A stretch of DNA of 64,000 nucleotides from Escherichia coli (GCF_044324875.1 NZ_CP172185.1), one strand, 5' to 3'; shown: positions 1 through 7,445, numbered from the stretch's first letter. A program made the numbers and translations. Notes: generated by a model not told the origin, from the letters alone.

Positions 1-1523
<1,523 letters not shown>

Positions 1524-1893: not shown

Positions 1894-4800
1894 CTAAACC
1901 TGACGCCTATCAAGACTATTATAAATAGCCTCAATCTCACCTTTCAGGTTATCACCAGAGTAAACCATCGATGTATCGTATCGTTCATATCGCGCTTCCC
2001 GTGTCGCACTAAACCAGTTGAACGATCCCACGCATAGCAAACCATCATCACCAATAACAATTTTGCTATGAACACGGTTTACCAGCTTTGTAGCAATACC
2101 CAGCGCATTCAGTTTCTCCAGCGCCGCTTTAAGGTTCTGCTGCTTCTCTTTTCGCTTCTCAAAATCTTTATGTTCAGTGTTATAGCTTCTGTCAGTGACT
2201 ATCGTGACGTTAATTCCACGTGAACACGCCGCAATCATGGAATCAAGAAAACCCGTTTGCTCCAGCTTTTGCCAGGTCAGCCATGGAGAAACTATCGTGA
2301 TGTGTTTATCGGTATTTTCAAACGTCTGATTCAGGAAATTATCATGCTGCTCCACACCATGGAGTGTGTAGATTTTGGTCTCGGAAGTTTTTAAATCCTT
2401 ACGCTCTTTATAATCAAAAGAGAGCGCATTCTTCTCGGACTCAAAGAGATATTTTGCCAGTAATCCCCGCGGAGATGAGGCTGGCTGGATCTCAAACAGG
2501 TCCATATCGCCGAAGACCAGGAAACTGTCCTTCGCACGGGAGACAGCAACGTTCAGCATGCTGTTATCGCTATCAATAAACCCGCCATCCTCATGCTTTG
2601 AATAGACTGGCGAGAATATAACAATCGCTCTTTCCGCCCCCTGAAGAGAATGCACGGTGCCCACGGTGAGCGACGTTTCATTCGCGCCTGTACTGATGCC
2701 TTGTTTACCCAGCGCCTGTTTGATAGTCGATACCTGCGCGCTAAAAGGCGTCACGATACCGACAACTTCATGAAGCGATTTGCCGTAATGCGCTTCAATA
2801 TCTTGCTGGTTATCTGTCAGCCAGGCAGCTATCGTTTCAGCCTCAAGCAAATTATATCGACTTCCGCTACTTGCCAGCGCTCCTTTACCATCAATATGGA
2901 GATAACCCATTGCGGGCATTAAATTGCTCTCTTCACGCCCTCTTTTAGGCAACAACTTACCGTGATAGCAGAGCGTATTACAGTATCCAATAATATTATC
3001 GAAGCACCGGCGGTGTTCATATAGGTACATACCACGAGCCAGTTCGGGATCATATTGATAGCGCGAAGCAAACTGAGCTATTTTCATAACGCTGCCAGAT
3101 GCGGCACTTTTACCAAGGTCTGCGATTGCCGTATATTTCTCGGTAATCTCTTCTTGCGTACTGCCAGACAGAATTTTTTCCGCCAGCATGTTACCGATAT
3201 CAATCGCAGGAGCAATACTCCATATTGGCGGGATCTGCTCCGTATCGCCAATCACTAATGCCTTCTTAGCTAATGCAAACGAGGCAGCAGCCACTTCAGG
3301 AAGCACCTGTCCGGCTTCATCGACAATGAGTAAATCGGCAAAATCATACAAATAACTTTTCTCGAATTTACGTTGTCCTTTGTGCTCACTTATCTGCATA
3401 TTGCCGGGCAGCATATAGCATGTCATCACCACACATGGAATGAGTTTCATTCGACGTTGCCAACGGGCAGTTACTCCTTTAGCGCCTTTTTTCTTCTTCT
3501 CTTCCTGCAGATCATCAATTCTGGCCATATCCATCAGCCAACGACCTTCCCAGTAGTGAGTCGTCAGTAAAAATGCAGGGAAGCGAATCTGCGTATCAGC
3601 CAGTTCATCGGCCTGTGAGAAGCTCAGTTCCTCGTCGCCCTCATACCCTAAATCAAGTGTCAGCCTCTGCCACTCCTGAACCGCCTGCTGTTCTTTAAGA
3701 ACGATTTCATGGGCGGAGTCAATCTGCTTCCGGTATGTTGTTTGCTCGCGTTCAGCGGAATTGAGCAGCCCATCAATATTACGTTCGATAGTTTCAGGAT
3801 CAGACCACTGATTTCCTGCAATCAGCGCGCCTAATTTATCTTCGAGAAACAGCTGTATTTGGTACTGTCGCTTATTGCGAACCGCCGGGAGCCAGGAAAA
3901 TAATGAATAGATCAGTGATTCACCGGCGCGATATTTTTTCCATTCCGTTTTAGCACTCTTCAGTAGAGTAACTTTTTGTTCTTGCCCGGAGAGTAATTTA
4001 TTTAAATTATCGAGATATTGCTCAATGTTATCAGCAATAAGCTCACGCGCCGCCCGAACCTGGCTTAACGTTTGCCATGTTGCGTTCAGTCTTATCAGTT
4101 GCTCGGATTTTGCTGCCAACTGACCATGCAGGAGTTCAATGACCTTTTCAGGGGATGAACACTCTTTTTCAGGAAAGGCTGCCTTAGCCTTCTCCAGATA
4201 AAACAGCAGTGCATCCTCTACATACTCTTTTGACTCAACCTGGTTGAAGAAATCTTCAGTTTGATATTTTTTGGCGGCCTCAGCTTTACGAGTGCTTGAG
4301 GGAAAATAAGCGCCGAAGCTTTTCAGCTCTGGCAACCATCGTCCGGCCATCGCACCGGTGCCCTGGGAAAAATCTTTCCCGAACGCCTCGATAATGTTCG
4401 TGACAGCCTGGTTATTCGTTGAGGTCGCGATAATGACCGGAGGCTCAGATTTTTCGAGAGCCGCTCGGGCCCACTGCGTGGCGATGATAGAAAGCACCAG
4501 CGTGGTTTTTCCGGTTCCCGGAGGGCCATTAACAGCAAGGATATCGCCATGTCTGGCATCCAGAAAATGGCTTAAGGCATCGCGCTGAGCCTTTGCCAGC
4601 GGAAACTTATCTCCGGAGTGTCCAAGCCTGTCGCTGAATTTTGCTCCTGGGGCCAGCAAAGACTCTGCAGCATGAACCTCTCGCGAGGCGAAGCGATTGA
4701 AGAGTGGCACATCCTTCTTGCAAACAAGCAGGTGATCATAAAGCGAAAGGATATGGAAACTGGCACCGCCAGATTGCGCCGTTTTAACAATATAACCGTG

Positions 4801-5409
4801 CTCAGCGAGTTCATATTGCTCAGGATTTTTAATCCAGTCGCCGGCAACGTTCTTCAGCAGCCTCTCTGAATCATCCAGATATTGACGCCAATCCTGCTGC
4901 AAGGCTGCATATCGTGCTTCCCGTTCTTCATCCGTTTCGGCAGTGTTATCAACGCTGTCATCAAACTTGATAGAGAATGACGTATGTGTCGTTTTATATT
5001 TGTCATACTGCTCAATCTCACCAATCGAAAATGCCCCTTTTGGCAAAGGTTCAAGCAGGTCTCTGGGAATGGAGGTCGCTGGCGTCGGGTATAAAAAACC
5101 CTCACGGCTTAGCAAGGCTGGCGTCACTAGCGGGGTAACAATATCAGGCACGCCTGCGGAACGGTCCTTACCATGCTGCAGTAACCGAAAATAAACTTTT
5201 GGGCGCAAGACGACATCGACCGTTTCGACATCGTCTTTTTCTCCCTCAAAAAATTTACTGACAATCGCTTCGTCAAGACGTCCCGCCGCTATCCCATGCC
5301 AGTGAGTGAAATTTTGGGCGTCTTTCCGTTCAAAGCTGCCCTTTCCTGACTCAGCATCCGCAAGCGAGTTGCGCCAGTATGAGGCAAACCCTAAAGCATT
5401 TTCATCCAT
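1894..5409 (-). CDS. Superfamily-1 (Upf1/DNA2-like, COG1112-type) helicase fused to a C-terminal phospholipase-D (HKD) family nuclease domain; candidate defense protein (Mokosh type II-like architecture)
   Basis: 1171-aa ORF. Walker [13 protein letters not shown]; motif [10 protein letters not shown]; motif [14 protein letters not shown]; motif [20 protein letters not shown]-terminal HKD motif [25 protein letters not shown] about 8 nt upstream of ATG. Confidence 0.85.
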
Positions 5410-5734
5410 TACCAGTCCTATGACTCAATGAAATCCATTGATTTATCGAATATAAAATCACCGTATGGATAACTATTGTCCACGTTGAAAGGCTGGCTGC
5501 AATGTTTTGTTCACGCTTCGATACAAATACTCAGGTTATACGGAGTTCAGAAAACGACCATATCATGCTGCATGGCACATAAAAGCTTTATAACCGAAGC
5601 AGCAAAGGATTACCGGCTGCGCAGCACGCCACGAAAGCCCGTGAGCTCTACTGGACAGCGTTCAGTGCAATATTGGAGTCTGTAAGTCCAGAAAATATCA
5701 CTGTCGAAGATGGTTCTGTATGTAGGTGCGCCAG

Positions 5735-6112
5735 CTATTGTTTTGTCCGATGCTTGCGAATAAAAGCATTCAAAATGTCGCCTTCACCATGCATGACAGA
5801 AAAAGAATATTCACATTCTTTCTTTATCAAGATTCCACATAATTCCTTGTGCAAATCTACATTAACTCCCTTTCCTTTCTGTGCTTTCTTCACACCGAGC
5901 TCACATGAACTGATTAATTCAACGTTACAGGGTTTCTTCAAATAATTCACACCATCAATTAAGCCCTGGAGAATGCATCTATTTGCGGTCGTATTACTGT
6001 AGGAGAAGGTCAGATATTTTATTTTCCCTTCACATTCCAGCACAACTTCCGCCGAACCTTCACGTGTTGCAGCATCACAACTTCCTGTTGAATATATTTT
6101 CACCATCTTCAT
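5735..6112 (-). CDS. Small RNase HI-like fold protein with substituted catalytic residues (predicted inactive pseudo-RNase H)
   Basis: 125-aa ORF; by-eye alignment to E. coli RNase HI: VKIYSTGSCD vs VEIFTDGSCL, NTTANRCILQG vs RTTNNRMELMA, VELISSCELG vs VILSTDSQYV, VNVDLHKEL..HGEGD vs KNVDLWQRL..HAGHPENERCD, with the DEDD positions replaced. Strong SD (GGGGAAAGG) upstream. Confidence 0.55.
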   Translation of the reverse strand: MKMVKIYSTGSCDAATREGSAEVVLECEGKIKYLTFSYSNTTANRCILQGLIDGVNYLKKPCNVELISSCELGVKKAQKGKGVNVDLHKELCGILIKKECEYSFSVMHGEGDILNAFIRKHRTKQ

Positions 6113-6180
6113 TTTGTACCTTTCCCCTTACCAAACGAATCATGACATCCTATATCAAAGGCATTCTCGTCAAAACTTTA

Positions 6181-6960
6181 CTATCTCAGTAAATTCTCCC
6201 GATGCCACTCCAGATAACAATACGATTCAACAGAAAACGCCTTTATTTTCTCCGGCAACAAACATTGCTCTTTAACGCTAATATCCAGCTCCTTACTAAT
6301 TAATAAATGCCCATCGTTCTCAAACGAAATCCATCCCTGATCGAATAGAATATCAATATGCGCAGCCAATATAATTCCATTAAAAGGATCAAGACGTTCA
6401 TTTCCATTCTCGCAGGCAGCCCACGGCTTTATATGGCTGGCACGCAGTAAAGGTGCAAAAGTCGTTCCCGTAACAGGGCATGCCGGATACAACATGAGAC
6501 AATTTTTCCGAAAGGTACCTTGCCCCAGCCGTGCCGCAATCAGCTGCTCGCGTACGGTATCTTCAATACTTTTATCCTGCTGAATAGCAAGACAGTCACG
6601 TTGTGCCTGTTCATCTCTATCAGTCGATATTAACGAAAGAACGCGCTGCTCAATTGCACTATCAGAAAGCACACTCAATCGCTGATGAACACGCTGCGCT
6701 GAATGAGAAAGCGCAGCAGGAGCACCCTGCTCGTCACGCCAACCGACACGCACATCACTAAGCCAGGAATCAAAACGGTCACGACTATTTTTCAGACTAT
6801 TGTGAAACTCGCTGGCAGTTTTGCCCGCTCCAAATCGAGGATAAAACAAGGCAAAAGCCTCTTTCCATTTCTGAACACCCAGTCCTGCGGGTGGTTGAGA
6901 GTTACCATACTTCGACAAATACCACGCCACTTCAAGCAAATCGTCTTCAGAGCTATTCAA
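6181..6960 (-). CDS. HNH-family endonuclease (259 aa); apparent TTG start
   Basis: C-terminal HNH motif ..LRASHIKPWAACENGNERLDPFNGIILAAHIDILFDQGW..; frame is open only back to a TAA at 6988-6990 and the first plausible start is TTG at 6958-6960 with AGGA 7 nt upstream; no in-frame ATG near the N-terminus. Confidence 0.7.
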   Translation of the reverse strand: MNSSEDDLLEVAWYLSKYGNSQPPAGLGVQKWKEAFALFYPRFGAGKTASEFHNSLKNSRDRFDSWLSDVRVGWRDEQGAPAALSHSAQRVHQRLSVLSDSAIEQRVLSLISTDRDEQAQRDCLAIQQDKSIEDTVREQLIAARLGQGTFRKNCLMLYPACPVTGTTFAPLLRASHIKPWAACENGNERLDPFNGIILAAHIDILFDQGWISFENDGHLLISKELDISVKEQCLLPEKIKAFSVESYCYLEWHRENLLR

Positions 6961-7030: not shown

Positions 7031-7174
7031 CTGCTTACCTGCAAAACGGTACTGCAAACGCTAATACTCAGAACCATTAAAAGGAACAAGCAGGTGCATA
7101 CCGCTGCCATCGGTCAGTTTGTACTGCTTATCCGTTGGCCTGGCTGTTCTGACCTTGATATCTGTTAACGCCAT
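7031..7174 (-). pseudogene. intB: 5' remnant of a P4-type tyrosine integrase (intB-like) adjacent to leuX; in-frame amber then loss of homology
   Basis: Reverse-strand ATG at 7174 with strong SD (GGGAGGGG) encodes MALTDIKVRTARPTDKQYKLTDGSGMHLLVPFNGSEY-stop-RLQYRFAGKQ, matching the conserved N-terminus of P4-family integrases; TAG at 7061-7063 sits where a conserved Trp is expected; no integrase-like sequence below about 7030. Confidence 0.75.
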
Positions 7175-7360: not shown

Positions 7361-7445
7361 TGGTGCCGAAGGCCGGACTCGAACCGGCACGTATTTCTAC
7401 GGTTGATTTTGAATCAACTGCGTCTACCGATTTCGCCACTTCGGC
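7361..7445 (-). tRNA. leuX: tRNA-Leu (anticodon CAA)
   Basis: Reverse complement reads GCCGAAGTGGCGAAATCGGTAGACGCAGTTGATTCAAAATCAACCGTAGAAATACGTGCCGGTTCGAGTCCGGCCTTCGGCACCA: cloverleaf with CAA anticodon loop, long variable arm, encoded CCA. Confidence 0.92.

Follow-up and report, generated by a model that had tools for sequence, protein, structure and literature searches.

The leuX-proximal end of an Escherichia coli defence island is very likely an assembly of independently acquired single-gene cassettes that includes Mokosh type II

Analyzing a 64,000-nucleotide stretch of Escherichia coli DNA (NZ_CP172185.1, GCF_044324875.1; hereafter the window), we found that the region next to leuX is very likely the leuX-proximal end of an E. 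coli defence island in which single-gene cassettes were acquired independently, and not an operon-like system. The initial annotation had read three genes here, encoding an HNH endonuclease, an RNase H-like protein and a helicase-nuclease fusion, as one undescribed three-gene defence module. Its defence reading holds for the setting, a defence island at leuX, but not for a single three-gene system. Among 5,426 complete E. coli genomes, mkoC, the helicase-nuclease gene, occurs in 839, compared to 141 with the HNH and RNase H-like genes and 140 with the whole block; moreover, a published defending construct, SG150, carries mkoC only, and the three cassettes are found in every combination. The annotation is corrected here to Mokosh type II, a solitary HNH gene that is probably type IV-like, and an IS-disrupted Mrr-like gene, instead of a new system (Table 1).

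Table 1. Features at the leuX-proximal end of the island, in window coordinates
Feature	Position	Strand	Basis or remark
leuX, tRNA-Leu(CAA)	7361-7445	-	ARAGORN; Rfam tRNA, 59 bits; integration site anchoring the island
P4-type (DUF4102) integrase stub, decayed	7174-7038	-	Translation; RefSeq partial DUF4102 pseudogene
HNH_2 endonuclease gene, 259 aa	6181-6960	-	Pfam HNH_2
RNase H-like gene, 125 aa	5735-6112	-	Pfam RNase_H, AlphaFold, Foldseek
Region upstream of mkoC, 325 nt	5410-5734	-	Within published defending construct
mkoC, Mokosh type II, 1171 aa	1894-5409	-	PADLOC MkoC, Pfam, motifs
DUF8426/Mrr_cat restriction endonuclease, N-terminal 84 codons	1513-1765	-	PADLOC PDC-S02
IS621 (IS110 family) insertion	235-1512	-	Transposase ORF 340-1320; alignment to IS-free L001
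Rest of interrupted Mrr-like gene	1-234	-	blastn to L001, L008-L011; exits window edge

The layout described by the initial annotation was accurate: the three genes are co-directional on the minus strand, with coordinates that proved exact, and they follow a decayed integrase stub by leuX. This stub is the N-terminus of a P4-type integrase, 46 codons long, whose translation, MALTDIKVRTARPTDKQYKLTDGSGMHLLVPFNGSEY*RLQYRFAGK, comprises 36 codons, an in-frame TAG and 9 further codons with homology, ending after codon 46 at the start of the HNH cassette; by eye, it hardly differs from the N-terminal end of the 419-aa integrase that is intact in locus L016. All three are real genes and not chance ORFs, with dN/dS values of 0.07-0.17 for the HNH gene and mkoC against diverged copies and of 0.18, from 12 substitutions only, for the RNase H-like gene against locus L002.

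When the three proteins were searched with PADLOC profiles, the large one, taken by the initial annotation as part of an undescribed system, proved to be the already named MkoC. The 1171-aa protein aligns with profile PDLC03924 over its full length (E=0, 1688 bits), its residues 1-1169 covering positions 1-1135 of the 1136 in the profile, which identifies the helicase-PLD gene, at the level of sequence, as Mokosh type II, an already known autonomous single-gene system. The proposed fusion of an SF1 helicase to a PLD nuclease is borne out by the Pfam domains AAA_11 (residues 272-487 and 679-729), AAA_12 (776-969) and PLDc_2 (1028-1143) and by intact Walker A (GPPGTGKT, residues 295-302, window 4504-4527), Walker B (DEAGQ, residues 697-701, window 3307-3321) and HKD (HSKIVIGD, residues 1114-1121, window 2047-2070) motifs. 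Weak matches to Upf1, IGHMBP2 and Dna2 were found among PDB sequences. As in Mokosh type II, a single polypeptide carries an SF1 helicase of the COG1112/Upf1-like kind and, after it, a PLD nuclease with one HKD motif, and its size (computed mass, 131.4 kDa) is that of purified EcMokosh II, a monomer of ~132 kDa. The mkoC of the window does not differ in substance from this system; it is one more allele of that E. coli gene, with 95-100% DNA identity across the 839 genomes. In published work, mkoC together with the intergenic region upstream of it protects E. coli from phage, a defence that is lost when either the ATP-binding site or the PLD active site is mutated, and the authors hypothesize that the Upf1-like helicase recognizes phage RNA or RNA/DNA replication intermediates, after which the PLD nuclease cleaves nucleic acid. 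[quoted passage not shown]

The published construct sets the limits of this system. SG150 is listed as "Mokosh type II" from E. coli 5-366-08_S1_C1, with observed defense marked "v" (Millman et al. preprint, Table S2), and it consists of 3903 bp, taken from the orthologous locus of that strain, with a single gene, encoding an MkoC of 1171 aa (Millman et al. 2022). Its MkoC is 97.5% identical to that of the window across the first 399 aa, and its 5' end aligns to window 5735-5536. Since the construct takes in only the last base of the stop codon of the RNase H-like gene, both this gene and the HNH gene are outside it. The resemblance to Mokosh noted in the initial annotation therefore stands for the helicase-PLD protein, a full-length MkoC, but not for the two small genes, which are excluded from Mokosh type II as defined. 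The 325-nt region upstream of mkoC presumably holds its promoter. It had no Rfam match and no promoter-like site in a simple scan, and the 146-189 nt nearest the gene are kept in mkoC-only contexts (window up to 5555 in L003 and up to 5598 in L099).

A joint system of HNH, pseudo-RNase H and MkoC, as an extended Mokosh variant, is very improbable and largely refuted by these and further observations. Such a system would fit the tight spacing of the three genes on one strand, where a simple scan predicted no terminator-like sites between them, so that read-through transcription is possible, and it would fit the recurrence of the block in 140 E. coli genomes, in Enterobacter hormaechei and in one metagenome contig. 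In principle, a dead RNase H could also bind RNA/DNA hybrids, which are the proposed target of recognition by Mokosh. However, the validated SG150 construct lacks both small genes, as do about 700 of the 839 E. coli genomes that have mkoC, and purified EcMokosh II is a monomer. In Enterobacter asburiae, a 62%-identical MkoC likewise adjoins an HNH_2 protein, but this protein is unrelated to that of the window, bears a different N-terminal domain (SBD) and is encoded convergently with mkoC rather than co-directionally.

The independence of the cassettes is seen in blastn break-points among close relatives, in which each of the three genes was found by itself, as were HNH with mkoC, RNase H-like with mkoC, and all three genes. 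The existence of every single and pairwise combination argues against the joint system. The HNH cassette spans window 7037 to 6176/6182, its boundary at 7037 being common to L014, L015 and L098. It stands alone in Atlantibacter and adjoins mkoC directly in Citrobacter koseri, in both cases with an HNH gene at 92-94% identity and no RNase H-like gene, and at the C. koseri locus L014 exactly the RNase H cassette (window 6175-5716) is missing. The RNase H-like cassette, with limits at 6203/6153 and 5747/5716, is alone in L005 and L013 and is joined to mkoC without HNH in Klebsiella. The mkoC cassette extends from 5715/5598/5555 to 1868/1825, and in two mkoC-only genomes that were examined, the gene stands by itself, flanked by an integrase at tRNA-Phe on one side and PAI genes on the other.

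Diverged homologues (50-65% identity) of each gene likewise occur without the other two, with the one exception in E. asburiae, and HNH homologues at 53-65% identity stand alone, twice beside integrases. The three-gene cassette, for which the initial annotation had looked to wider conservation, is confined to one recent lineage: of 80 loci anchored on HNH_2 in other species, none carried the RNase H-like gene and 2 carried a MkoC. The occurrence of the triple block in E. hormaechei and the metagenome contig, with different flanks, indicates that it can move as one piece, but all of its copies share at least 91% DNA identity, which points to one recent lineage and not to independent conservation. 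The locus provides a base-resolved example of how single-gene cassettes, exchanged independently of one another, build up defence islands, with an exchange that spans E. coli, Klebsiella, Citrobacter, Enterobacter and Atlantibacter.

The first of the small genes is an HNH endonuclease gene, as had been annotated, with Pfam HNH_2 at residues 161-214 (E=4e-12). Its product matches PDB 6yex (E=2e-41); among 14 homologues, H176, N194 and D203 do not vary and H201 hardly does, and the HNH domain is 58% identical to that of enterobacterial SBD-HNH proteins. Its sequence makes a solitary, VcaM4I-like restriction enzyme of type IV (modification-dependent) the most likely identity of the protein. The C-terminal half shows homology to the catalytic domain of VcaM4I, an EVE-HNH enzyme that depends on 5mC/5hmC, and the helical N-terminal domain, conserved in this enterobacterial HNH family, fills the slot taken in relatives by EVE, SRA, SBD or winged-helix readers, a position from which it would direct cleavage to some modified foreign DNA. 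Like the VcaM4I-type enzymes (EVE-HNH, SRA-HNH, SBD-HNH such as ScoMcrA, and wH-HNH), it is the product of a single gene, has about 260 aa with a non-catalytic N-terminal domain, and adjoins an integrase in an island. It differs from them in that this domain (about residues 1-115) belongs to none of EVE, PUA, SRA and SBD and has no match among Pfam families or solved folds. Published wH-HNH enzymes read the Dam mark (G6mATC), and such a reader would be self-toxic in Dam+ enterobacteria (PMC11037411).

The second small gene carries the only residual novelty of the locus. Its 125-aa product matches Pfam RNase_H (E=4e-5), and its AlphaFold (AF2) model (pLDDT 87) has its best Foldseek matches to E. 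coli RNase HI (E=2.4e-10; TM 0.75 to 1wsj). Compared to RNase HI (type 1, PF00075), the fold and topology and the GSC and TT-NR motifs are kept, whereas all four catalytic carboxylates are replaced (D10 by T, E48 by I, D70 by S, and D134 not conserved) and the basic protrusion is deleted, for which reasons the initial label of a degenerate, non-catalytic RNase H is correct. Judged from sequence and model, the protein has retained the RNase H fold without the ability to cleave, and its probable role is that of a nucleic-acid-binding module. It belongs to an uncharacterized family (240 representative relatives) that plasmids, ICEs and islands commonly carry, and by pattern matching in 147 retrieved relatives, the equivalents of Asp10 and Glu48 are missing in most of the closest ones. 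A scan of 48 multi-domain members revealed fusions to GIY-YIG (2-3 members), to a DUF559/Vsr-like domain (1 member) and also to a DnaG zinc ribbon. There is a slim chance that this undescribed dead-RNase-H family serves as a sensor of RNA/DNA hybrids or structured DNA that partners nucleases, here the upstream HNH, or modulates Mokosh.

A related proposal is that HNH and the dead RNase H form a module of their own, independent of the adjacent Mokosh, in which the pseudo-RNase H senses nucleic acid for the nuclease or regulates it. The two genes are co-directional, separated by a 68-nt gap with a good ribosome-binding site. With HNH upstream, as in E. coli and E. hormaechei, the reading frame of the RNase H-like gene is undamaged, and it is broken where HNH is absent or replaced, by a nonsense codon 10 with a GTG start in Klebsiella and by a frameshift in L013, a decay that hints at dependence on HNH. 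The C-terminal fusions of the pseudo-RNase H to the GIY-YIG and DUF559/Vsr-like nuclease domains point the same way, as does one stand-alone relative that follows a T5orf172/MUG113 (GIY-YIG-like) gene. However, the pairing is contradicted by the HNH genes of Atlantibacter and C. koseri described above, by the absence of the RNase H-like gene from all five full-length HNH relatives from other species as well as from the 80 HNH_2 loci, by pseudo-RNase H relatives with no nuclease gene beside them, among which are those of an IncFII plasmid and of Pantoea, and by the lack of any HNH fusion among the 48 scanned members. We regard this module as quite improbable; if it were real, HNH and pseudo-RNase H would make up a new two-component defence or counter-defence module.

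The contexts of the family also bear on another possible role of the pseudo-RNase H, in anti-defence or in the maintenance of mobile elements, for example as an RNA/DNA-hybrid decoy; the gene would then hitch-hike on the island and take no part in host defence. Relatives at 47-59% identity, none of them near MkoC or HNH_2, occur on a conjugative plasmid (IncFII/TraI), in ICE-like regions where they follow DUF1173 and have TraX nearby, after the T5orf172 gene, and beside toxin-antitoxin genes (Fic/Phd); a Pantoea relative lies near an ORF that we read as plasmid Rep-like, and the Klebsiella copy is at the end of a CP4-like island carrying Antirestrict, RadC and CbtA genes. These contexts are heterogeneous, though, and the protein has no homology to characterized anti-defence proteins, as PADLOC returned nothing for it and PHROGs only a generic RNase H family. 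Such a role is unlikely.

On the other side of mkoC, the island continues with the Mrr-like gene. Locus L001, which lacks the insertion, aligns by blastn to window 7500-1513 and 234-1, and the Mrr-like gene is intact there. In IS-free strains, the gene downstream of mkoC is a full-length match of the PADLOC candidate PDC-S02 (DUF8426 and Mrr_cat), to which an intact homologue of 329 aa aligns with E=1.5e-80. The window copy differs in being split by IS621, by which it is presumably inactivated, and at locus L002, RefSeq annotates an "IS110-like element IS621 family transposase" together with a "restriction endonuclease, missing C-terminus".

The locus is a known single-gene defence system with independent cassettes on its flanks, within a mosaic defence island (see the table). 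The 1171-aa helicase-PLD protein is a full-length match to the PADLOC MkoC profile of Mokosh type II (E=0, 1688 bits; residues 1-1169 align to profile positions 1-1135 of 1136), confirming the resemblance to Mokosh noted in the initial annotation, and its Walker A, Walker B, and HKD motifs are all intact. Mutating either active site of Mokosh abolishes defence. According to a 2025 preprint, EcMokosh II protects against an ssDNA phage and the purified protein is a monomer of ~132 kDa; the computed mass of MkoC is 131.4 kDa. EcMokosh II is reported to stop phage SECphi17.

The published type II construct, SG150, consists of 3903 bp from Escherichia coli 5-366-08_S1_C1 with a single gene, MkoC, of 1171 residues, and is listed as "Mokosh type II" with observed defense "v" (Millman et al. 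preprint, Table S2). Its first 200 bases match window positions 5735-5536 at 96% identity, so the clone takes in no more of the RNase H-like gene than the final base of its stop codon, and given the 3903-bp length the 3' end of the clone should lie ~60 nt beyond the mkoC stop. Over the first 399 residues, the SG150 and window MkoC proteins are 97.5% identical. Together, the start of the clone and the MkoC identity show that the validated Mokosh II came from the same locus type as the window and that both upstream genes were deliberately left out.

Features of the leuX locus and limits of the cassettes (window coordinates)
Feature	Position	Strand	Remark
ahr, yjgR, lptG, lptF			right of leuX
tRNA-Leu(CAA), leuX	7361-7445	minus	
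P4-type integrase stub	7174-7038	minus	in-frame TAG after codon 36; homology stops at codon 46
HNH_2 protein	6181-6960	minus	259 aa
RNase H-like protein	5735-6112	minus	125 aa
Gap between RNase H-like gene and mkoC			325 nt
Helicase-PLD protein (MkoC)	1894-5409	minus	1171 aa
Mrr-like restriction gene, first part	1765-1513	minus	first 84 codons; broken by IS621
IS621 (IS110 family)	235-1512	minus	transposase 340-1320; within DUF8426/Mrr_cat (PADLOC PDC-S02) gene downstream of mkoC
Mrr-like gene, remainder	234-1	minus	continues past window edge
HNH cassette	7037 to 6176/6182		
RNase H-like cassette	6203/6153 to 5747/5716		
mkoC cassette	5715/5598/5555 to 1868/1825		

The window is E. coli chromosome, and the coordinates and domain calls of the initial annotation are correct, as is its placement of a decayed integrase stub before the three genes. 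The truncation of the stub coincides exactly with the edge of the HNH cassette at 7037. In strains such as E. coli GN06156, which also has the three-gene block intact, the Mrr-like gene is uninterrupted and encodes 329 aa. Beyond the left edge of the window lie more defence genes that vary by strain, including a TIR (ThsB-like) gene, type I R-M, and an N-6 methylase with an AAA ATPase in GN06156 (L001, 1-11000) and a DISARM-like set (DUF1156, PLD, DUF3780) in AH01 (L002, 1-5900).

Aligning window positions 7500-1 to loci of other organisms, we found that the break-points are discrete and recurrent. The HNH cassette is solitary in Atlantibacter subterranea (92%), the RNase H-like cassette in metagenome contig L013, and the mkoC cassette at a tRNA-Phe island and in L099, another of the compared loci. 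In Citrobacter koseri the HNH cassette directly adjoins mkoC, with window 6175-5716, the RNase H-like gene and its flanks, precisely missing, and Klebsiella carries the RNase H-like cassette, mkoC, and the Mrr-like gene without HNH. All three genes together are likewise present in Enterobacter hormaechei and in a single metagenome contig, where the flanking sequences differ. All these copies share at least 91% DNA identity, indicating one recent lineage. In C. koseri NCTC10786 (L014, 9097-12612), mkoC is split into three ORFs of 335, 298, and 583 aa, through either frameshift or assembly errors.

Among 5,426 complete E. coli genomes, counted at a query coverage of at least 80%, mkoC is present in 839, the HNH plus RNase H-like segment in 141, and the whole 6.1-kb block in 140. 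In the other ~700 mkoC-positive genomes, what is shared 5' of mkoC is limited to the first 100-146 nt, and in both such genomes inspected the solitary mkoC lies between a tRNA-Phe integrase and a pap-type pathogenicity island. The interpretation in the initial annotation is partly supported: its view of the region as defence-related holds, with the large gene being Mokosh, but a novel three-gene system is not supported.

The 125-aa protein is, as first described, a degenerate RNase H. It is confidently modelled as an RNase H fold (pLDDT 87; TM 0.75 against RNase HI of E. coli), yet T, I, and S replace D10, E48, and D70, and both D134 and the basic protrusion are missing. An exhaustive phmmer search retrieved 240 representatives, which true RNase HI sequences join only from ~E=5e-9; by pattern match, the Asp10 and Glu48 equivalents are missing in most of the closest relatives. 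Pfam detects only weak RNase_H similarity, and motifs resemble IYS-x-GSC and TTANRCII. The relatives P0132-P0278 represent a large, uncharacterised family of RNase H domains that are catalytically dead. Its members stand alone or are fused to GIY-YIG, DUF559 (Vsr-like), a DnaG zinc ribbon, a C-terminal HTH, or C-terminal extensions of ~250 aa, and some are tandem duplications.

Partnership of this protein with the HNH enzyme is an explanation we consider improbable. In its favour, the RNase H-like gene is intact where HNH lies upstream and broken where HNH is absent (in Klebsiella the start is GTG and codon 10 is a stop; in L013 there is a frameshift), and the domain is in some members fused to other nucleases. 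However, each gene is widespread without the other, the RNase H-like gene without any nuclease neighbour. None of eight contexts of stand-alone relatives (Pantoea, a DUF1173 neighbour, Fic/Phd, T5orf172, an IncFII/TraI plasmid, and others) has an MkoC or HNH_2 gene nearby, and a single HNH family profile scan of species-representative genomes gave 80 loci, none with the RNase H-like gene.

In Klebsiella and related contigs (L008-L011, 9932-10309), gene callers give the broken copy as a 102-aa product, which is indexed in 514 blocks of the contig collection. Next to it, both mkoC and the Mrr-like gene are intact. DNA identity to the window is 97.6% for the RNase H-like gene versus 93.7% for mkoC, a gap that suggests mosaic recombination.

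From its architecture, the HNH protein is best read as a stand-alone type IV-like restriction enzyme whose reader domain is of an unrecognised kind. Relatives with a common C-terminal domain carry an N-terminal SBD (PF26340) or other domains; the N-terminal 115 residues of the window protein are conserved and predicted helical, with no Pfam family match, SBD alignment, or solved-fold match. MkoC was found at two of the 80 profile loci, in C. koseri and Enterobacter asburiae. In E. asburiae INSAq146 (L019, 7476-12021), a 62%-identical MkoC is convergent (tail-to-tail) with a 316-aa SBD-HNH of phosphorothioate-reader type, whose HNH domain is 59% identical to that of the window; this second pairing of Mokosh II with a neighbouring HNH_2 enzyme, arranged differently from the window, may be a defence-island coincidence. 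Full-length relatives occur at five of the 80 loci (53-94% identity), and two of them, in L016 (9026-10285; 65% identity) and L018 (6675-7973; 53% identity), are the leading cargo gene of their island, each directly adjoining a tyrosine integrase that is intact.
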